In this document: positions 4,436 through 64,000 of the stretch, in pieces | Numbering within the stretch: position 1 is the stretch's first letter | Layout of the letters: each line of letters begins with the position of its first letter | NCBI RefSeq assembly: GCF_036365525.1 | Contig: NC_090407.1 | Coordinates: forward strand, 21,914,084 to 21,978,083 | From: Heterodontus francisci | Taxonomy: Eukaryota | Direction of reading: 5' to 3' | Length of the DNA stretch: 64,000 nt | Position numbers and translations under genes: made by a program | Notes under the pieces: model-generated | What the model was told of the DNA's origin: nothing | Databases searched by the model: none | What the model saw: only the letters and a program-made list of their open reading frames with translations

Positions 4436-4669
4436 GGCACTGAAATAACGAGAGACACGTGAGATAGAAACACCAAGCTCCCCTGTCACATAGCACCCGG
4501 CTCCCCTGTCACAAACCTGTGGCCACTGAACCTCGCAAACTGGATCATCTCAAACAATGAGGAATATTGGCAATTCCAGGTAGAATTCATACTGGAACAT
4601 AAAGACATGACTGGCTATACTTAGCAGGGGAAGGGTGTTGGGGAGGACAGGCAACATCCAAAGAGGGAT

Positions 4670-5175
4670 CAGTATCCCAGCGAGGCCGGTGGGGGGGGGG
4701 GGCACTGTCCAGCGAAGCCAGGGGATTTTGGGGGGGGGGGCACTGTCCAGCGAAGCCGGGGGATTGGGGGGGGTGGGGGGCACTGTCCAGTGAAGCCGGG
4801 AGATTTGGGGGGGGGGGGGGGGGCACTGTCCAGCGAGGCCGGGGGATTGCGGAGGGGGGCACTGTCCAGCGAAGCCGGGGGATTGGGGGGGCACTGTCCA
4901 GAGAGGCCGGGGGATTGGGGGGGGGGGGCACTGTCCAGCGAGGCCAGGGGATTGGGGGGGGGGCACTGTCCAGCGAGGCAAGGGGATTGGGGGGGGCACT
5001 GTCCAGCGAGGCCGGGGGATTGGGGGGTGGGCACTGTCCAGCGAGGCCAGGGGATTGGGGGGGGGGGGGGGGGCACTGTCCAGCGAGGCCGGGGGATTGG
5101 GGGGTGGGCACTGTCCAGCGAGGCCGGAGAATTGGGGGGGTGGGGGGCACTCTCCAGCGAAGCAGGGGGGCCGGG
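4670..5175. repeat. G-rich minisatellite, about 13-14 units of 32-42 bp
   Basis: Core GCACTGTCCAGCGA(A/G)GCCGGGGGATT followed by a variable G run. Confidence 0.95.
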
Positions 5176-5199
5176 GCAGTGCCCGGGGAGGGGAAAGGC

Positions 5200-5620
5200 G
5201 ATTGGTAAACGGAGTCGGGTGGGGGAGAACGACTCCCGAGTCCACGGTCTGGCGCTGGACCTTGCAGCGCTTTAAACTGAGCCCGGGACCTCCGGTTTAA
5301 CTTCCACCGCGACTTGGCACCGGAGAGTCCGGGCTCAGACCCCGCTCCGGGCGGCGGAAGACAGTGACCTTGCGCCGAGGCTCGGACCTCCAGTCCGGTC
5401 ATGCACTTTACCCGATGTCGCCAGGGCCGGGCCTACACTTCAGCCGCTCTAAGCGGGATCGGGCCTACCCTTCAGCTGTTCTAGCGGGGGCAGGTCTTGC
5501 CTGATCCACTGCCGCGCTGCAGCCACCGCTGCTTCGCCAAACTACAAGGGCCGACGCGCGTCATCAACCCGCGCCAGATGCACGCTGCGTCATCAACCCG
5601 CGACTCGCATAGGTCTGTCA
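5200..5620 (-). promoter_or_regulatory. CpG island: probable mfn2 promoter and non-coding first exon
   Basis: CpG-dense stretch about 1 kb upstream of the ATG exon; candidate donor CGG|gtaaag at 5412/5411; duplicated GCGTCATCAACCCGCG (5558-5573, 5587-5602). Confidence 0.65.
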
Positions 5621-12470: not shown

Positions 12471-12474
12471 ACTC

Positions 12475-13190
12475 AAGGGTCTTTCGACAGCATCTTCCAA
12501 ACCCATGACCTCTACCACCTAGAAGGACAAAGGCAGAAGATGCATGGGAACACCATCACCTGCAAGATCCCCTCCAAGCCACACACCATCCTGATTTGGA
12601 ACTATATCACCATTCCTATATCGAAGGAATGGCGATATAGTTCCAAGTCAGGATGGTGTGTGGCTTGGAGGGTAGCTTGCAGGTGATGGTGTTCCCATGC
12701 ATCTTCTGCCTTTGTCCTTCTAGGTGGTAGAGGTCATGGGTTTTGGAAGGTGCTGTCTATGGAGCCTTGGTGCGTTGCTGCAGTGCATGCCACTGTGTGT
12801 CAGGGGTGGAGGGTTGTGGATGGGTTGCCAATCAAGCAGGCTGCTTTGTCCCGAATGGTGTCGAGCTTCAAATGTTGTTGGAGCTGCACACATCCAGGCA
12901 AGTGCAAAGTATTCCATCGCATGCCTGACTTGTTCCTTATAGGTGGCAGAGAGGCTTTGGGAGTTCAGGAGGTGAGTTATTCACCACAGAATGCCCAGCC
13001 TCTGATCTGCTCTCATAGTCACAGCATATGTGTGACTAGTCCAGTTGAGTTTCTGTTGATGGTGCAGGATTTGATGATAGTACAGCATTTGATGATAGTG
13101 ATGCCATTGAATGTCAAGGGGACTAGGTTAGACTCTTTCTTGTTGGAGATGGTCATTGCCTGGGCTTTGTGTGACTCAAATGCTTGCATG
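12475..13190. mobile_element. Family A LINE fragments forming a fold-back
   Basis: Plus piece about 12475-12617 followed by minus piece 12625-13190. Confidence 0.85.
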
Positions 13191-15708: not shown

Positions 15709-42827
<27,119 letters not shown>

Positions 42828-43186: not shown

Positions 43187-43975
43187 GTTTTTTTTAATTT
43201 CCAAAATATACTTTATTCATAAAAATCTGTAAAAATTACATTCCCAAACAGTTTAAAACAGCATCAAGTCAAAAAATACAAACAGTGCAAAGGTGATCAG
43301 TTTCCTTCAATACAATCATGAGTTGCCTCACAACTCTTCCATTTCATTGTCATGCCATTAACATTTTTACATTTACAGCACACAATATTTTCCCGATACA
43401 GTTCGAGGGGTTTCCCATGGATCCAGCTCCTCAGTTCAGCTTGGTGGGGGACCTGACACAGTGGTCTTTCCCCATTGAGCCTTTGCTGCGGCTTCCCCAA
43501 GCTTTAGTGCGTCCCTCAGCACATAGTCCTGGACCTTGGAATGTGCCAGTCTGCAACATTCGGTGGTGGACAACTCTTTGCACTGGAAGACCAGCAAGTT
43601 TCGGGCAGACCAAAGGGCGTCTTTCACCGAATTGATAGTCCTCCAGCAGCAGTTGATGTTTGTCTCGGTGTGCGTCCCTGGGAACAGCCTGTAGAGCACA
43701 GACTCCTGTGTTACAGAGCTGCTTGGGATGAACCTCGACATAAACCACTGCATCTCTTTCCACACCTGCTTTGCAAAGACACATTCCAGGAGGAGGTGGG
43801 CAACCGTCTCTTCCCCACCACAGCCACCGCGGGGGCATTGTGCGAAGGGGGCGAGACTTCGGGCGTGCATGTAGGATCTGATGGGGAGGGCCCTTCTCAC
43901 CACCAGCCAAGCTACATCTTGGTGCTTGTTTGAAAATTCTGGTGATGAGGTATTCCGCCAAATGACTTTGACGGT
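43187..43975 (-). mobile_element. Tx1-clade LINE, 5'-truncated 3' fragment
   Basis: CPRGGCGGEETVAHLLLEC zinc finger, stop, AATAAA, poly(A). Confidence 0.9.
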
Positions 43976-45265
43976 CTGCGATTGCAGGGGAAGGTGCCAT
44001 GGGAAGGGGACGAGGTGTTGGGGGTAATGGAGGAATGGACCAGGGTGTCATGGAGGGAACGATCCCTTCGGAATGCTGACAGGGGAAGGGAGGGGAAGAT
44101 GCGTTTGGTAGTGGCATCATGCTGGAGGTGGCGGAAATGGTGGAGGATGATCCTTTGGATATGGAGGCTAATGGGGTGGAAAGTGAGGACAAGGGGAACC
44201 CTGTCACGGTTCTGGGAGGGAGGGGAATGGGTGAGGGTAGAGGTGCGGGAAATGGGCTGGATGCGGTTGAGGGCCCTGTCCACCACAGTGGGGGGGAATC
44301 CTCGGTTGAGGGAACAGGAAGACATATCAGAAGCGCTGTCATGGAAGGTAGCATCATCAGAGCAGATGCGTCGGAGATGGAGAAACTGGGAGTATGGAAT
44401 GGGGTCCTTACAGGATGCAGGGTGTGAAGAAGTGTAGTCGACGTAGCTGTGGGAATCGGTGGGCTTATAATGGATATTAGTAGACAGCCTATCCCCAGAG
44501 ATGGAGAGAGAGAAGTTGAGGAAGGGAAGTGTCAGACATGGACCATGTAAAGGTGAGAGAAGGGTGGAAATTAGAAGCAAAGTTGATAAAGTTTTCCAGT
44601 TCGGGGCGGGAGCAGGAAACGGCACCGATAACAGTCATCAATGTACCGGAAAAAGAGTTGGGGGAGGGCGCCTGAGTAGGACTGGAACAAGGAATGTTTG
44701 ACAAATTCCACAAAAAGACAGGCATAAACTAGGACCCATGTGGGTACCCATTGCAACACCTTTTATTTGAAGGAAGTGAGTGGTGTTGAAGAAGAAGTTG
44801 TTCAATGTGAGAACAAGTTCAGCCAAGCGGAGGAGGGTGGTGGTGGATGGGGACTGGTTGGGCCTCTGTTCAAGGAAGAAGCGGAGAGCCCTCAAACCAT
44901 CCTGGTGGGGGATGGAGGCGTAGAGAGATTGGCCGTCCATAGTGAAGAGGAGGCGGTTGGGGCCAGGAAACTGGAAATTGTCAAAATGACGTAGGGCGTC
45001 AGAAGAGTCACGGATGTAGGTGGGAAGAGACTGGACCAAGGGAGAAAAGATAGAGTCAAGATAGGAAGAAATAAGTTCAGTGGGGCAGGAGCAGGCTGAC
45101 ACAATGGGTCGGCCGGGACAGTCCTGTTTGTGGATTTTGGGAAGGAGGTAGAAGGGGCTGTCCGGGGTTGTGGGACTATGAAGTTGGAAGTTGTAGAGGG
45201 AACATCTCCAGAGGAGATGAGGTCAGTGACAGTCCTGTGGACAGCAGCTTGATGTTTGGTCGTGG
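43976..45265 (-). mobile_element. Penelope-like element RT fragment
   Basis: LAELVLTLNNFFFN..QIKGVAMGT, FFRYIDD, YKPTDSHSY.DYTSSHP..IPYSQFL..RRICS. Confidence 0.9.
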
Positions 45266-54679: not shown

Positions 54680-55000
54680 GCTCCCGGTTCTTCAGTAGCT
54701 GAGCCATTAACCGGAGGTGCTAAGTTCAATCCCCAGTCCACGCTGAGTCAGCTTACTTTTGTCAGGGCACCGGCTCAAGGGTGGCTAGAGTTGGGTTCTG
54801 TATCCCGGCATTAGGGAGGGGAGAATGAGCCAAGGTTCCTGCTCTTGATCAGTACTTAGTACCTCCTATCAGACAGCGTATGTATTTGGATGTTGGTCAT
54901 GGATGTGATGCATCCTGCAGTTGAATAAACCTGTCAACACTCAGCCTAAACTCTCAATAAATAATGGCACTTGGGTGAGGTAACAGGATGTCCAACTCCC
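54680..55000 (+). repeat. Old SINE-like repeat; related pieces near 43135-43185 and 52080-52300
   Basis: Shared GGGAGGGGA..AGCCA(A/G)GGTTCCTGCTC(C/T)TGAT and GGCACTTGG.TGAGGTA motifs. Confidence 0.45.
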
Positions 55001-55530: not shown

Positions 55531-56245
55531 TACAGAAACTTTTGAAACCCGATGGGATGTGTAAGACACGATTAAAACAGCCACCATAAAACCTTAAATA
55601 CACTAACACTGAGATCCAACTTTACAAGTGGGTGGAGCAAGTTTGAAATTTGGTATCGAATCATGGGTTTCAGAATAATTAAGTAAGAAGAATGAAGATT
55701 ATCTAAAGTTGGATTACATGATTATCTTTTACTCTTAACTATCTCTTTGTAATGAAAGCTAAAAGAAGTCTATTGATAATTAAAAGTTACAGAAATAAGA
55801 GGAAAGTATGTAATGTTACTAAATTCCTGGCGGAGTGAGACATTTTATAGTCAGAAAATGGAATTTAAGAATTATTCACACAAACATGTTCCCAGGTAAC
55901 TAGTTCAGGGTGTCATGGTATTGAGAGCAGACGGTACAGCATGAGGAGGACGTGTTAGAATCTGAGCGCACAGGCTGTGGGCTTGTTGAATCCGCCAGGA
56001 GGCCTTTGTGCAACTTGAAATGACAGCAAGAGGCTGCAGGCCAGTTCTATGCTGGCTCCAATGGCTGTTAGTAATGATGCTACCCCAGCATTTCTTCCTG
56101 GGCACTCACCACTGAAACTCTTATGCCGGGATAAATGTTAATGAAAATCCAACCGACACTCCCCTGTTTACATTTGAGCAGAGGGAATTTAGCCTCTCCT
56201 GTTTCTCTAGAATTCAGAAACAAAACCCATGGCAACGTCGGCAGG

Positions 56246-59200
56246 TTTTTTTTTCCCCAAAAGTATACTTTATTCAGAAAAATCTGTTAAAATAAAATAC
56301 ATTACAAAACAATTCAAAACAGCACCAAGTTGATATTCCAGAAAGTGCAAAGGAAATCAGTTTTCTTCAATACAGGAGTGAGTTGCCTCCCAACCCTTGC
56401 ATTCCATTTTACATAGAATGTACATTTTACAGCAAACCCATATTTGGTGTATACAGCCCGAGGGGTTTTCCATGGGTCCAGTCCCTTGGTTCACTGGCGG
56501 GAGGACCTTACACAGTGGTCTTTCTCCATTGAGCCTTTGCGGCGGCAGCCCCAAGCTTTATTGGGTCCCTCAGCATGTAGTCCTGGACCTTGGTCTGCAA
56601 CACTCAGTCATGGACAACTCTTTGCACTGTAAGACCAGCAAGTTTCAGGCAGACCACAGAGCATCCTTCATCGAATTGATGGTTCTCCAGCACCAGTTGA
56701 TGTTTATCTCGGTGCGCGTCCCTGGGAACAGCCCATAGAGCACAGACTCCTGTGTTATAGAGCTGCTTCGGATGAACCTCGACATAAACCACTGCATCTC
56801 TTTCCACACCTGCTTTGCAAAGACACATTCCAGAAGGAGGTGGGCAACAGTCTCTTCCCCACCACAGCGACCTCAAGGGCAGCCTGTGGAGGTGGTGAGA
56901 TTCCAGGCGTGCAGGAAGGATCTGACGGAGAGGGTCCTTCTCACCACCAGCCAAGCTACATCTTGGTGCTTGTTTGAAAGTTCTGGTGATGAGGCATTCT
57001 GCCAAATGACTTTGGCGGTCTGCTCGGGGAACCATATGACAGGATCCACCATCTCCTTTTCCCGTAGGGCCTTGAGGACATTCTGTGCAGACCACTGCCT
57101 GATGGATTGGTGGTCAAAGGCATTTTTCTGTACAAACTTTTCCATGAAGGATAGGTGGTACGGCACAGACCAACTGGATGGAGCATTCCATGGCAATGTG
57201 GCCAGTCCCATCCTTCACAGCACCGGGGACAGATAGATCCTCAGCACGTAGTGACATTTGGTGTTTGCATTCTGGGGTTCTATGCACAGCTTGATGCAGC
57301 CGCACATGAAGGTGATCATTAGGATGAGGGCAATGTTGGGTACGTTTGTTCCGCCTTTATCCAGAGGTTTGAGTATCGTGTCCCTCCGGAACCGGTCCAT
57401 TTTGCATCTCCAAATAAAGCGGAAAATGGCTCAGGTGACCGCCATGGCACAGGGGTGGAATTTGGGACAGACCTGCGCCACATACAGCAACAACGTGAGC
57501 GCCTCACACCCAATGACCTGTTTCTTACCCGCAATGGAGAGAGATCACTGCTCCCACATGCTGAGTTTATGGTGTACCATGGCTAAGCGCTCCTTCCAGG
57601 TTTTTGCGCACGCCCTGGCCCTTCCAAACCATATCCCCAGCACCTTTGGGTAGTCTGACCTGACGGTGAAGGGGACAAGGGATCGGTCAGCCCAGTTCCC
57701 AAAGAACATGGCCTTGTTCTTGCCGTGTTGTACTTTGACTCCCAAGGCTAGTTCGAACTGGTCACAGATGCACAGTCTGTGGATGGACAGCAGATCCAAG
57801 CAGAAGACGGCAACGTCGTCCACGTACAGGGAGGCTTTGACTTGACTGCCTCTGCTGCCAGGAATTGCCACTCCTCTTATGTCCGCATCCTTCCTAATGG
57901 ACTCAGCAAAGGGTTCGATACAGTGAACAAACAAGACTGGAGAGAGGACAGCCCTGTCTGACTCCAGATGTGATCGGGAAACTTTCTGATTCCCACTCAT
58001 TGAGACTGTACTAACGATGTTTGTGTAGAGCAGTTTGATCCAATTGCGGATTCCCTCCCCAAACCCCATTTTGGAGACCACGTCCATCATGTATGTGTGC
58101 GATATCCTGTCAAAAGCCTTCTCCTGGTCCAAGCTGATGAGGCAGGTGTCCACCCCCCCTGTGCCGTACATAGGCCATCGTATCCCTGAGTAGCGCAAGA
58201 CTATCAGAGATCTTCCTGCTGGATACAGTACAGGTCTGGTCAGGGTGAATCAGCAACTCCAGAGCAGACTTGACCTGACTGGTGATGACTTTGGACAGAA
58301 TCTTGTAGTCTACATTAAGCAGTGAGATGGGCTGCCAATTTCTGATTTCCGCCTCCTCTCCCTTCCGCTTGTAGATGAAGGTGATGATGCCTTTCCTCAT
58401 GGATTCTGACATGCTGCCGGCCAGAAGCATATTCTCGTACACTTCCAGCAAGTCTGCACCGATCCAGTTCCACAGAGTCGAATACAACTCAACCGGTAAG
58501 CCATTGCTTCTGAGAGTTTTACTCGTCTCAAAGGACCTGACAGCCTTTGTCAGCTAGTCCAGAGTTAGCGGTTTGTTCAGATCCTCCCGTATGCTGTCAT
58601 CTAAGACCTCCGTGATAGATGACAGGAAGGACTGGGAGGCCGTGCTGTCCATGGGCTTCACATTGTACAGTCCAGCATAAAAGGATTTGCTAATCCTTAG
58701 TATGTCAGACTGCGAAGGCGTTACCAAGCCATCCTCTTTCTTCAGGCTGCTGATCGCAGAGCTCTCTGTGTGTACTTTTTGGAAGAAGAAACGCGAGCAC
58801 ATCTCACCCTGCTCATCGGAGAGGACTCTGGACTGGAAGATAATCTTGGTGGCCTGCAATGGCAAAGAGCGAGGCCTGCTGGCTCTTCACCTCTTGGAGA
58901 TCCTCCTTGACCTCGACACCCATCGACTGCAGCCGGAGCAGATTTTGCATTCTTTTCTGGAGTCGTGACATTTCCCTCTGTCTCTCTCTCACCCTCTGAA
59001 CACCTTTGAAGATAAAGGACCTCTTGATGTTCGCCTTGATCGCATCCCACCAGTGCACCAGAGACTCAAAGAGGGGTTTCATGGTTCTCCAACCTTTGTA
59101 ATTCCTTTTGAGTTCCTCAGTGTTCTCTGGGGTTAGCAGTGTAACATTTAGCTTCCATGTCCCCCTGCCAACCCACTGGTTGTCCTATAAGTGACAGTCA

Positions 59201-61464
59201 GCCAGTAAGAGGCAGTGGTCAGAGAAAAACACTGGCTCGACGTCGGTGGATCTGACTGTGAAAGCTTGGGACACAAACAGGAAGTCAATCCTGAAACAGG
59301 CAGACTCATCCGGTCTTGACCAGGTGTATCTACGCTGTGCTCCGTCTGCAGGTTTGCTGAAGACGTCGTGCAACTTGGCATCTTTTACTGTTTCCATTAG
59401 GAATCTGGACGTAGCGTCCAGTTTGCTGTCATCACTGCCGATCGTCCAGCTGTGTTAATGATGCAGTTGAAGTCACCGCCGAGAATGAATGGCCTGGATG
59501 TCGCCAGCAGCAGTGGGACCTGCTGGAAGATGGTCAGCCGCTTGCTGTATTGAACCGGGGCGTACACGTTGATTAACCAGAGCAGAGCATTGATGTACAT
59601 TACATCTGCATACGAGGAGGCGACTGCCCACCACCTCCTGAACTGCAGAGATAGTGACGTTGCCTCCCCGCAGCAGAATACCCAAGCCGGAGGAAGGAGA
59701 ATAATTTCTCCCTGACCAGACCAGCCCATTGGACCACCATTGCCTGTAGGTGCTGATGTGCAGAATTCCACACTCCTGCAGAAACAGCAGGTCGGCTTTG
59801 ACCTTGGCGAGGTAGTCCAAGGTTGTAACACATTGCGTAGTGGATTTAACGGTATGCACGTTAATCGAAGTAATCTTTATACCCATTTTACAGTTGGGTG
59901 TTGCTTACCACACCAGGTGTCCTTGCTAGTCCCAGTTCTTGAGTATGTTCCTGCATACCCATAATGTACACAAGCTGTTTCACATTTGTTAGACTCAGAA
60001 ACCCCTCCTGGTTACTCATGGGGGGTTTGTTCCACTGGGGTGACATCGGGGGGGGTCTTGTAGGCAGCAAGGCTTGGGCTATCCTCTGCTGGTGGTGTCT
60101 TTCCCCTCTGTCCCTCCTCGAAGCCATCACTGCTCCCGGCTTCCCGGAGCTGGAGTGCGCCAGACGCTTCGCTGCTCTCAGACTCCCGGAGCTGGGGTGT
60201 GCTGGGCATCTCGCTGGGTTCAGCGCTTTGAGGTTGGGGCGCGCTGGGCCCGTCACAGCTTCCAGTGCCCGAGAGCTGGGGGGCTTTCTCTTCCAATTCC
60301 TTTGAGTTCTGCCGCTTCTTTTGGAGGTGCCGTCTTTCCGGCCCTTCCTCATCCAATGAGGAGAAGCTGCCGTAGTCTGTCTCCTCTTGCCACTCGTTTG
60401 GGTGGTGACCTGTTCCTTTTTTGGAGGCTTCTTTGTGGTTTTCCTTTTCACCACTTGCCACTGACCAGTTTATCTATCTGCTGCCTCCGCCTCCATTGAT
60501 ATTGTCTGTAGAGGAGGAGTTTCCGGGCACGGGGTAGGTGTTGGATTGCTGGTTGCAGCTGCCTACCCTTTCTTCTCCTTCTCAAATTGACTTTCCTTGC
60601 TGCGGGGAGGATTTCTTGTCTCCTTCCCAGCACCAGATGCGTTCACCGTTCCTTCTCCCGGCCTTTCCTTGGACCTTACCGCCTGTGCATAACTGAGGTA
60701 GGTTTTGTCGAGGTGGTCTGTCCCTCTGCACAGATTGCAGCACTTACTCTGTTTACAGTTCTTGGTCTCATGGCCTTCCTTCTTGTAGTTCTTGCAGACG
60801 ACTCTGCTGCAGTTGGCCGCCACAAGACCAGATTTGCCACAGGTACGACAAACTCTGGGCTGCCCCGCATAGACCAGGAAGCCTCGACTTGCCCTGATAG
60901 TGAAGCTGGAGGGAGGACGGATGATGGCTCCATTGGCATCAACCTTCAAGGTAACCTTGACCTGCCGTTTGCTGGTCCAAATCCCAAATGGGTCCTTGAC
61001 ATCAGCGTTGCTGCCGGCCACCTTGACGTATCTGGCAAGGAAGATGAGTACATCTGTGACAGGAACATGGAGATTGTCATCACCCGGTCGTGTTGCAACA
61101 GCAGCGTGAAGAGTGGCTCCACTGTGAGGATCGACAGTGGCACCTAGTTTCCACTCTCCTTGAACACCTTCAGGAACTTGATCCCGCCACATTCATGAAC
61201 GTCATGTTGAAATATCCACTGCTGGGGAAATCCTGCAGGCAGAAGATGTTTGCAGCTTGGAATCTGCAGCAATCCATAAGGATTTTCTTAATGAAGAAGG
61301 TGCGGTCAACTGGTGCACCTCCTTCATTACCCTTCACCTTCACCCGAAAGGTGTTAAGCACTCCCTGGCCTGAAGCTCTAGAATTGGTTACAGCCATTTT
61401 GCTCAAAATTTACCTGGAACATGATCAAAGGCCACTGATCATGGTCTCTCCCTTGCCAGGTAAC
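56246..61464 (-). mobile_element. Full-length, decayed Tx1-clade LINE with U1 snRNA-derived head
   Basis: ORF1 ATG 61397 to stop 59888 (ZCCHC3-like N-terminus, three zinc knuckles); ORF2 ATG 59886 to about 56508 (APE SINV/LQE/GDFN/SDH, RT LDQEKAFD/YVDD, CCHC); AATAAA plus poly(A); flanking duplication A(n)CCTGCCGA. Confidence 0.95.
61432..61463 (-). pseudogene. U1 snRNA 5' fragment forming the LINE head
   Basis: TTACCTGGCAAGGGAGAGACCATGATCA-GTGG; 26/28 to U1 nt 5-32 as recalled. Confidence 0.8.
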
Positions 61465-61472
61465 TCGGCAGG

Positions 61473-62203
61473 TTTTTTTTTTCTCAAAAATATACTTCAT
61501 TCATAAAAATCTGTTAAAAAAAATATATACATTACAACACAGTTCAAAACAGCACCAAGTTGACATTCCAAAAAGTGCAAAGGAAATCAGTTTTCTTCAA
61601 TACAGGAGTGGGTTTCCTCACAACCCTTCCATTCCATTTTACATGCCATGTACATTTTACAGCAAACCCATATTTGGTGTATACAGCCCAAAGGGTTTCC
61701 CATGTGTCCAGCCCCTCAGTTCACTATGGTGGGAGGACCTTACACAGTGGTCTTTCCCCATTAAGCCTTTGCTGCGGCTGCCCCAAGATTTAGTGTGTCC
61801 CTCAGCACATAGTCCTGGACCTTGGAATGTGCCAGTCCGCAACATTCGGTCGTGGACAACTCTTTGCGCTGGAAGACCAGCAAGTTTTGGGCAGACCAAA
61901 GAGCATCTTTCACCGAATTGATGGTCCTCCAGCAGCAGTTGATGTTTATTTCGGTGTGCGTCCCTTGGAACAGCCTGTAGAGCACAGACTCCTGTGTTCA
62001 AAAGCTGCTCGGGATGAACCTCGACAAAAACCACTACATCTCTTTCCACTCCTGCCTTGCAAAGACATATTCCAGAAGGAGGTGGGCAACTGTCTCTTCC
62101 CCACCACAGCCACCTTGAGGGCAGCGTGCAAAGGGGGCGAGACTCTGGGCATGCAGGAAGGATTTGACAGGGAGGGCCCTTCTCACTACCAACCAAGCTA
62201 CCT
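61473..62203 (-). mobile_element. Tx1 3' fragment directly upstream of the full-length copy
   Basis: CPQGGCGGEETVAHLLLE, AATAAA-like signal, poly(A) abutting CCTGCCGA. Confidence 0.9.
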
Positions 62204-62750
62204 CTTTTTTTTCCCCCAAAAATATATTATTCATAAAATTTGTAAAAATACATTAAATAACACTTCAAATTTGGCATCACTTAAAGTGCAATTCAGATCA
62301 GTTTCTTTCAATACAGAACATGAGGTGCCTCACTACACTTGCCATTACAGGTTATATTTACAGTGTACATTTACATTTCATGTCAAACACTCTCTGGTGT
62401 ATACAGCTCAAGGGGTTTTACACGGGTTCCAGCCCTCGGTATACTATGGCAGGAGGGTCTTACACAGTTGCCTTTCCCCATTGAGCCTTTGTAGCGGCAT
62501 AGTTCTGAACCATGTAATGCATCAGTCTGTAATATTTGGTCATCGACAGCTCTTTGCACCGGAAGACCAGCAAGTTTCGGGCAGACCAAAGAGCGTCTTT
62601 CAATGAGTTGATGGTCCTTCAGCATCGAGGTCACGTTTCCGCACCAACGTATTTATGAGGAAGTTTGGAGGAGCTAGGGTTTGTAGCGTAATGTTTATCT
62701 CGATATTTGTCCCTGGGAACAGCCTGTAGAGTGGAGTCCTGCATTATGGA
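62204..62750 (-). mobile_element. Diverged Tx1 3' fragment (other subfamily)
   Basis: KDALWSARNLLVF-like coding remnant, related 3' UTR, poly(A). Confidence 0.8.
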
Positions 62751-62907
62751 GCTGTCCCAGTGACACAGTGATGGTGACGCTAACACGGTGACAGTGATCA
62801 ACAGTCATGGTGACCGTGATAGTTGTACTTCATGGTGACAGTGGGCTCCTCCCTCCTGGATACATGTTTTGTACAATTCCTGGTTCCCAGTTTACATTCA
62901 GCACAAA

Positions 62908-63553
62908 CCTGCCCTCGAGGTCGCTGTGGTGGGGAAGAGACGGTTGCCCACCTCCTCCTGGAATGTGTCTTTGCAAAGTAGGTGTGGAATGAGATGCAGT
63001 GGTTTTTGTCCAGGTTCATCCCAAGCAGCTCTGTAACACAGGAGTCTGTGCTCTACGGGCTGTTCCCAGGGATGCACACCGAGATAAACATCAACTGCTG
63101 CTGGAGGATCATCAATTCAGTGAAAGACGCCTTTTGGTCTGCCCAAAACTTGCTGGTCTTCCAGAGCAAAGAGTTGTCCACGACTGAATGTTGCGGACTG
63201 GCACATTCCAAGGTCCAGGACTATGTGCTGAGGGAATCACTAAAGCTTGGGGCAGCCGCAGCAAAGGCTCAATGGGGAAAGACCACAGTGTAAGGTCCCC
63301 CCACCAAGGTGAACTGAGGGGCTGGATCCATGGGAAACCCCTCAACTGTATCCAGAAAATAATTGTTTTGCTGTAAAATGTACATAGCATGTAAAATGAA
63401 ATGAAAGGGTCGTGAGGCAAACTCACTCCTGTATTGAAGGAAACTGATCTCTTTTGCACTCTTTGTATTGTTTGACTTTGTGCTTTTTGGAACTTTTGTA
63501 ATGTATTTTTTACAGTTTTTATGAATAAAGTATATTTTGGAAATTAAAAAAAA
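62908..63553 (+). mobile_element. Tx1 3' fragment, plus strand
   Basis: WFLSRFIPSSSVTQESVLYG..AAAAKAQWGKTTV-stop, AATAAA, poly(A). Confidence 0.9.
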
Positions 63554-63565
63554 CAAACCTGCCAG

Positions 63566-63598
63566 CTTACCTGGCAGGGGAGAGACCATGATCAGTGG
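63566..63598 (+). pseudogene. U1 snRNA 5' fragment forming the LINE head
   Basis: CTTACCTGGCAGGGGAGAGACCATGATCA-GTGG; 28/29 to U1 nt 4-32 as recalled. Confidence 0.85.
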
Positions 63599-64000
63599 GC
63601 TTTGCTCCTGTTCCAGATAGGTTTTGAGTAAAATGGCTGTAACCAATTCTAGAGCTTCAGACAGGGAGTGCGTAACACTGTTTGGGTGGTGGTGAAGGGT
63701 AATGAAGGAGGTGCACTTGTTGACCGTACCTTCGGCATTAAGAAAATCCTTATTGATTGCTGTGAATTCCAAGCTGCAGACATCATCTGCCTGCAGGACT
63801 TCCCCAGCAGTGGATATTTTGATGTGACATTCAAGAACCTGGCAGGATGCATCAAGTTCCTGAAGGTGTTCAAGGTGAAGGAAACCAGGCGCTGCTGTCG
63901 ATTCTCACAGTGGAGCCGCTTTTCACGCTGCTGTCGCAACGCGACCGGGTGGTGACAATTCACCCCTGTAACCTCCATGTTCCTGTCGTGGACGTGCTCA
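63566..64000 (+). mobile_element. 5' end of a second U1-headed Tx1 element (runs off the right edge)
   Basis: U1-like head, ATG 63633, ORF1 NTVWVVVKGNEGG..DIICLQDFPSSGYFDVTF. Confidence 0.9.

Follow-up and report, generated by a model that had tools for sequence, protein, structure and literature searches.

A CCTGCC word shared by clustered Tx1-type LINE copies in a shark genome looks like an insertion scar

Copies and coding content of the LINE cluster

Self-comparison of the window (the whole 64,000-nucleotide stretch of DNA analysed here) revealed five copies of one LINE lineage between 56246 and 64000, and a sixth copy at 43188-43979. In the cluster, a minus-strand and a plus-strand array stand back to back on either side of a host spacer. 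The copies are designated E0 to E6.

43188..43979, minus strand: E0, a solitary truncated copy, its tail followed by CCAAGG
56246..61464, minus strand: E1, a full-length but decayed Tx1-type LINE with many stops and frameshifts, comprising a U1-derived head, ORF1, ORF2 with endonuclease, reverse transcriptase (RT) and zinc-binding remnants, and poly(A)
61473..62206, minus strand: E2, a 5'-truncated copy of 734 bp that starts near element position 4500, 86.6% to E1, with a 5' end that lacks a target-site duplication (TSD)
62207..62754, minus strand: E3/4, a diverged relative (73-76% to the other copies) with a 59-66 bp insert
62755..62902, no strand assigned: host spacer between the minus and plus arrays, with degenerate short repeats
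62914..63552, plus strand: E5, a 5'-truncated copy, nearest to E0 (91.5%)
63566..64000, plus strand: E6, a copy represented by its 5' part and cut by the window end

Poly(A) tails were present on all five copies with a 3' end in the window, TSDs were identified at two copies (E1 and E5), and 5' truncation was also present. A search of the junctions for a TSD of E0 or of the block formed by E2 and E3/4 found none. The poly(A) of E3/4 runs straight into the body of E2. Analysis of informative sites grouped E5 with E0 and not with E2 (23 sites, compared with 3 and 3 for the other groupings), and the elements are thus separate insertions, not duplicates. The same grouping ruled out E5/E6 as an inverted duplicate of E2/E1.

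The coding remnants of E1 were examined by domain and protein matching. A piece of ORF1 matched RBD_ZCCHC3_2nd (E 8e-20), with CCHC-like motifs visible in the translation. Fragments of ORF2 matched Exo_endo_phos, RVT_1 (twice) and zf-RVT, in that order; one of these four matches was above the Pfam cut-off, and two of seven pieces were unmatched, one of them off-frame. The RT piece had 163 homologs; among the 120 listed, the only named vertebrate match was a ray protein (72%), and no named reference sequences were listed. An off-frame reading of E0 matched two shark-named proteins, which indicates DNA kinship only. The ray and shark matches point to a cartilaginous fish as the host. No loci were found when the head and tail patterns were scanned in viral contigs, when the ORF2-end pattern was scanned in metagenome and prokaryote genomes, or when the in-frame ORF2 end was scanned in viral and prokaryote collections. 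By its architecture, the element is a putative member of the Tx1 clade.

Other features were also observed in the window. The 5' end of E0, which has no TSD, adjoins a purine-skewed stretch with long open frames (43980-45222) that looks like another retroelement, and its 3' flank is a short repeat with a second occurrence at 54804-54851. The insert of ~60 bp inside the diverged E3/4 (62625-62690) is found only once in the window. A 296-bp self-inverted stretch at 12474-12769 (91% identity) is apparently formed by two opposed ends of another repeat family. Window self-comparison also identified tandem arrays at 4677-5205 (units of ~76-153 bp) and 21030-21243 (59 bp).

The CCTGCC word and the sequence behind poly(A) tails

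At three sites a poly(A) tail is followed by CCTGCC: CCTGCCGA at 56245-56238 and 61472-61465 on the minus strand, and CCTGCCAG at 63558-63565 on the plus strand. A preliminary description of the locus had reported these sites with the right coordinates, and had correctly noted that the copies ending at 43187 and 62204 lack the full motif, the former being followed by CCAAGG and the latter by the body of another copy. The plus-strand tail reads A8-C-AAA-CCTGCC, and the duplicated word there is longer than the motif first described. A fourth CCTGCC (62908-62913), overlooked in the preliminary description, was identified at the 5' end of the truncated E5. In the 128,000 bases of both strands, AAACCTGCC occurs four times (56248, 61475, 63555 and 62905), each time at a junction of the family. 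The duplicated sequences are as follows.

56238..56245, minus strand: 3' TSD copy of E1, CCTGCCGA, with adjoining A's that are inseparable from the tail
61465..61472, minus strand: 5' TSD copy of E1, which doubles as the 3' junction of E2
62903..62913, plus strand: 5' TSD copy of E5, ACAAACCTGCC, the last 5 letters of which also match the element body (microhomology)
63553..63563, plus strand: 3' TSD copy of E5, which doubles as the 5' flank of E6
63564..63565, plus strand: AG, with which the inverted match between flank and head grows to 8 bp; presumably a 2-nt copy of head sequence made by twin priming, or else the mutated end of a TSD

An exact 11-bp duplication (62903-62913 and 63553-63563) brackets E5, and the duplication around E1 comprises 8 bp plus the ambiguous A's. 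The first two sites had been read as a TSD around the full-length E1; this reading was upheld and extends to a second element, E5. The word lies in the TSDs of both E1 and the headless E5, and is thus host DNA that was duplicated at each of these elements. Two unrelated window sites had the same 6-mer in 0.04% of 400,000 trials (0.18% when a shift of 0-4 bases was allowed), and chance recurrence of the word was ruled out by this rate (<0.2%) together with its position at junctions in four of four cases. The four AAACCTGCC copies are not independent, and stand for at most two host sites, each re-hit in tandem. Taken together, the shared word looks like an ordinary insertion scar, not a family address or an RNA cap, and the locus illustrates that repeated use of a single site can leave TSD copies resembling a target consensus.

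In the flank, CCATGGCAAC at 56227-56236 adjoins the insertion point of E1 inside a loose palindrome. It resembles half of an RFX/X-box site.

Reads and contigs were aligned to 63300-63800 at a likeness of 80, using three contig sets, from organisms A, B and C, together with a capture library of A; no RNA data set was listed as containing the sequence. This evidence comes from relatives or other individuals, with 0.53 of sampled words present in the best run, and the capture library is biased. The family was abundant in all four sets. Depth in X15 dropped from ~1000 at the tail to 38 across 63555-63571, and the head had 105; no more than 5.6% of the tail depth crosses the word, a bound that is valid only if the aligner places reads with differing A-run lengths and that falls to near zero if the head explains that bin. 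None of the six loose-end consensuses behind tails among those listed (429 further loose ends) starts with CCTGCC. Loose-end agreement was 0.33 (442 reads), 0.37 (30 contigs) and 0.41 (10 contigs), compared with 0.317 in a random-flank simulation; agreement is a weak test (0.344 in simulation even at a 50% word share), and the missing C-run is the better one. In simulated consensuses a word class was visible in 24-51 of 100 cases at a share of 10-15%, in 74 at 20% and in 95 at 30%. Kojima 2015 (PMC4494074) counts a family as target-specific when one kind of sequence occupies >20% of flanks; for CCTGCC across the whole family the share was below this, at ~6% or less by depth. Five listed joints connect tails to short 3' pieces of other copies, with the word absent, like the joint of E3/4 and E2.

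The sequence-specific target put forward in the preliminary description was not supported at the level of the family, given the mixed sequence behind the tails and the lack of the word in all six listed consensuses. CCTGCC is unlikely to be the target of the whole family, and a preference for it by a minority, below ~15% of insertions, is possible. Two further arrangements were seen in this material. Behind the tail, other copies (63498-63553) carry either their last 45 nt once more or a different 3' piece, and 8 reads connect a tail with 63716 of the opposite strand, a position within another copy's ORF1.

The U1-derived head and the 5' joins

Both copies that retain a 5' end with a head, E1 and E6, start with a fragment corresponding to U1 nt 4-32, identified by eye against a U1 reference. 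Rfam detected no U1 in the heads, the piece being too short. The elements of this region and of the inverted join at E3/4 are as follows.

61436..61464, minus strand: U1-derived head of E1, 26 of 29 letters
63566..63594, plus strand: U1-derived head of E6, 28 of 29 letters
61410..61417, minus strand: CCAGGTAA strand, an exact 8-nt complement of the E1 U1 arm, splice-donor-like
63613..63621, plus strand: masking strand of E6
61397, minus strand, and 63633, plus strand: putative ORF1 ATG of E1 and E6, respectively
62755..62765, no strand assigned: inverted copy, 11 nt long (10 of 11 matching), of E3/4 62708-62718, its end coinciding with the E3/4 5' junction

Folding of the first 60 nt of both heads, free of flanks, predicted that the U1 arm pairs with a strand ~45 nt downstream (z -2.46 and -2.39; 3 of 200 shuffles each). 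An exact 8-nt complement like that in E1 is expected in 0.5% of random 45-mers. In E6 one pair of this stem is broken at 63617, where the letter that pairs is found in 95 of 110 X15 reads and, in the contigs of A, B and C, in almost the entire depth; as a counter-case, the majority letter at 63605 breaks a pair of the E6 fold. The masking of the U1 arm suggested in the preliminary description is retained as a prediction, but with an internal strand as the partner and not a 5' leader.

The masking strand lies 13-20 nt upstream of the putative ORF1 start and resembles a splice donor. Five of its eight letters are also found in U1 near nt 47-51, so that it may have been captured with the rest of U1 and diverged since. 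The match between the arm and the donor-like strand may reflect selected masking, diverged U1 sequence, or a trace of U1 that was bound to a donor when captured. The self-pairing head is the more useful lead from this locus, as it offers a testable answer to why a promoterless U1 fragment persists. Why these elements keep a U1 fragment that lacks a promoter is left open in the text of Kojima 2015 (PMC4494074).

Analysis of the 5' junctions identified an inverted match ending at the junction in two of six cases, E3/4 and E6 (matched or exceeded by 16 and 42 of 3000 random sequences, respectively). The E3/4 value refers to random 16-mers scoring as well, and this join drops out when the search is limited to 40 nt. 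The other four junctions had no match; at E1, 1692 of 3000 random sequences scored as well. Inverted 5' joins as a general feature were rejected on this count. The 62755-62765 stretch is possibly a twin-priming or fold-back join and also an inversion breakpoint. The 5' join of E6, with its 8-bp hairpin, likewise resembles a twin-priming or fold-back join as judged from its letters: the last two letters of the hairpin are the expected extension of a CCTGCC primer along the head (chance match, 1 in 16). Twin priming is understood here as summarised in PMC13174262.

Origin of the shared word and comparison with known systems

The reading that we favour, with moderate confidence, is that CCTGCC is host DNA copied as a TSD at each local Tx1-type insertion, and that the family as a whole does not target it. 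The TSDs at E1 and E5, the tandem order and the distinct copies are shown by the sequence, and a first hit, re-cutting and an inversion are inferred. A first copy would have inserted at the host word by target-primed reverse transcription. Later copies would have re-cut the duplicated word, E5 at its 5' copy and E1 at the A-tail junction of an earlier copy, with an offset of ~2 nt; landing in the A-tail of an earlier copy is a habit of L1-group elements. An insertion-linked inversion with one breakpoint at 62754/62755 would then have flipped the upstream half, giving two opposed arrays with a common word. At E6, the freed top strand would have paired with the head and gained 2 nt as in twin priming, the match to the U1 head being a chance 6-mer and at most an aid to joining. 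Precedents for two of these steps are described, namely tandem SINEU-3 copies that sandwich a TSD (PMC4494074) and L1 insertions with genomic inversions (bioRxiv 2024.12.14.628481).

Given one inversion of the segment between 62755 and some position outside the window, all copies would fall into one array at one site, and one host site with local inversion would account for all four copies of the word. A 5' TSD is lacking in the minus array, which borders a 148-bp spacer; at the far side of this spacer, on the other strand, lies the TSD of E5. The missing 5' TSD and the inverted 11-mer at the 5' junction of this array were both counted for the inversion; its second breakpoint would fall outside the window, a point against it. 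Derivation of both junctions from one ancestral locus, which the preliminary description had set against its own proposal, is the most economical reading of the site, but the elements themselves are separate insertions. Against a single site, the words differ after CCTGCC (GA vs AG), which needs two changes or a twin-priming addition. Repeated hits are also unexpected in a family that has no preference, so that some local preference is needed, which a single site leaves unexplained. For E5's left flank folded together with E1's right flank, the comparison with random left flanks gave 49, 46, 299, 71 and 49 of 600 trials, and an unanchored alignment of the flanks was not significant (539 of 2000 shuffles). 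A former joining of the two flanks is no more than suggested by these values; support for their contiguity is weak, and two copies of a preferred repeat therefore remain a strong rival.

According to that rival, which we regard as possible but the less probable account, the word belongs to a dispersed host repeat present in two copies (for example, the arms of a palindromic DNA transposon) that is preferred by a minority or subfamily of the LINE, and the flank of the minus array was deleted. Repeated tandem insertions do point to a preferred site, and SINEs mobilised by Tx1-Mar show partial preference (13%, 23% and 90%; PMC4494074). The difference between GA and AG would be ordinary divergence, and a 10-15% class was visible in only 24-51 of 100 simulated consensuses. 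Together the flanks are loosely palindromic about the word, a pattern equalled by 12 to 22 of 600 shuffled flanks in three settings and by 8 and 153 in the other two, but it was not significant against random window flanks. The flanks also lack a second copy in the window, E0 is located elsewhere, and an extra deletion is required. A palindromic transposon as the target, attractive by eye, was tried and failed the unanchored test (539 and 431 of 2000 shuffles); the anchored test was suggestive only.

The two remaining explanations start from the complementarity between the word and the U1 head. The preliminary description had offered CCTGCCAG as a 5' leader that folds back on the U1 arm, which we now consider very improbable. 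Its 8-bp hairpin is real at E6, where it is perfect (z -2.87; 4 of 200 shuffles) and, with the word included, is the predicted fold of the 5' end, but the E1 version has one change in the head arm and folds weakly (z -1.43; 18 of 200 shuffles). The word is also present 3' of E1 and 5' of the headless E5, and in other copies, which start at 63566, it is absent: 4 of the 24 listed pieces (5177 further), from three organisms, reach this first base of the head, and none extends into CCTGCCAG. Unaligned upstream letters numbered 207 and 335 in two plus-strand records, and 74 or 9, depending on coordinate direction, in one minus-strand record. The leader was rejected on these grounds. Insertion guided by the head, in which GGCAGG pairs with CCTGCC on the top strand of the target to create hot spots and capture full-length 5' ends, is improbable as well. 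In its favour, the two U1-headed copies of the window both have the word at their 5' junction, insertion at the site was repeated, and the exact 8-nt inverted match of E6 ends at the junction. However, the four listed pieces that reach 63566 stop before the word, folding predicts an intramolecular partner for the arm, the E1 junction scores no match, and both headed copies may have one common site. The equally strong inverted join of the headless E3/4 shows that the effect is not specific to U1. A 6-nt complement of the head occurred within a random 13-bp site in 2.4% of trials, and a single head-complementary word found after the fact is therefore unremarkable. Of the RNA-DNA pairing first proposed, a role in the 5' joining step of the plus copy E6 is possible, and family-wide targeting did not stand. 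There is also a slight chance that the U1 arm is a switchable guide, masked by the donor-like strand in the free RNA and freed in reverse transcription to pair with a CCTGCC top-strand overhang in a minority of insertions, which would make hot spots of such sites and favour capture of full-length 5' ends. If true, an AP-endonuclease LINE would be choosing targets in an RNA-assisted manner, through a spliceosomal RNA fragment, a new route of site choice for this element class.

With CCTGCC read as a re-used host site, the locus appears to hold a U1-headed Tx1-type LINE that works like the Tx1-Mar cases of Kojima, and its membership in Tx1-Mar is putative. No report of a U1-headed Tx1 element in sharks was found in the openly accessible literature searched. 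The locus extends U1-headed Tx1-type LINEs to cartilaginous fish. Kojima 2015 describes the U1-headed Tx1-Mar families Tx1-2_Crp, Tx1-2B_Crp and Tx1-4_AMi in crocodilians, with partial target preference (PMC4494074). The shark element shares with crocodilian Tx1-Mar and SINEU the two ORFs, the U1-derived 5' head and the poly(A) tail; its TSDs and arrangement recall SINEU-1 (TSDs of ~10 bp) and SINEU-3 (tandem copies around a TSD). Unlike crocodilian Tx1-Mar, it resides in a shark, and neither a family-wide target nor one of Mariner type was seen. Tx1-Mar inserts preferentially into Mariner-N4-type transposons; the flanks here are single-copy in the window. A strand of the head that pairs with the U1 arm is predicted here, and no mention of one was found in the available text of the same paper.

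Association with snRNA also links the element to Keno and Utopia (PMC4640811). Keno belongs to the Tx1 clade, in which the RT of Tx1-Mar clusters with it, and is specific to U2 genes; Utopia-1_NVit is occasionally found in tandem, and crocodilian Utopia has weakened specificity. Unlike in these elements, the snRNA piece is carried by the element itself and the flanks are not halves of an snRNA gene: Rfam matched no snRNA gene in the window, and no listed tail flank reads as U1 or U2. The joins resemble those of L1, for which inverted micro-matches at 5' junctions, 5' microhomology and local inversion are described in PMC13174262 and bioRxiv 2024.12.14.628481. In contrast to the one-off snRNA/L1 chimeras, the U1 piece here is a fixed family head in three organisms, and the inverted pieces measure only 2-11 nt.
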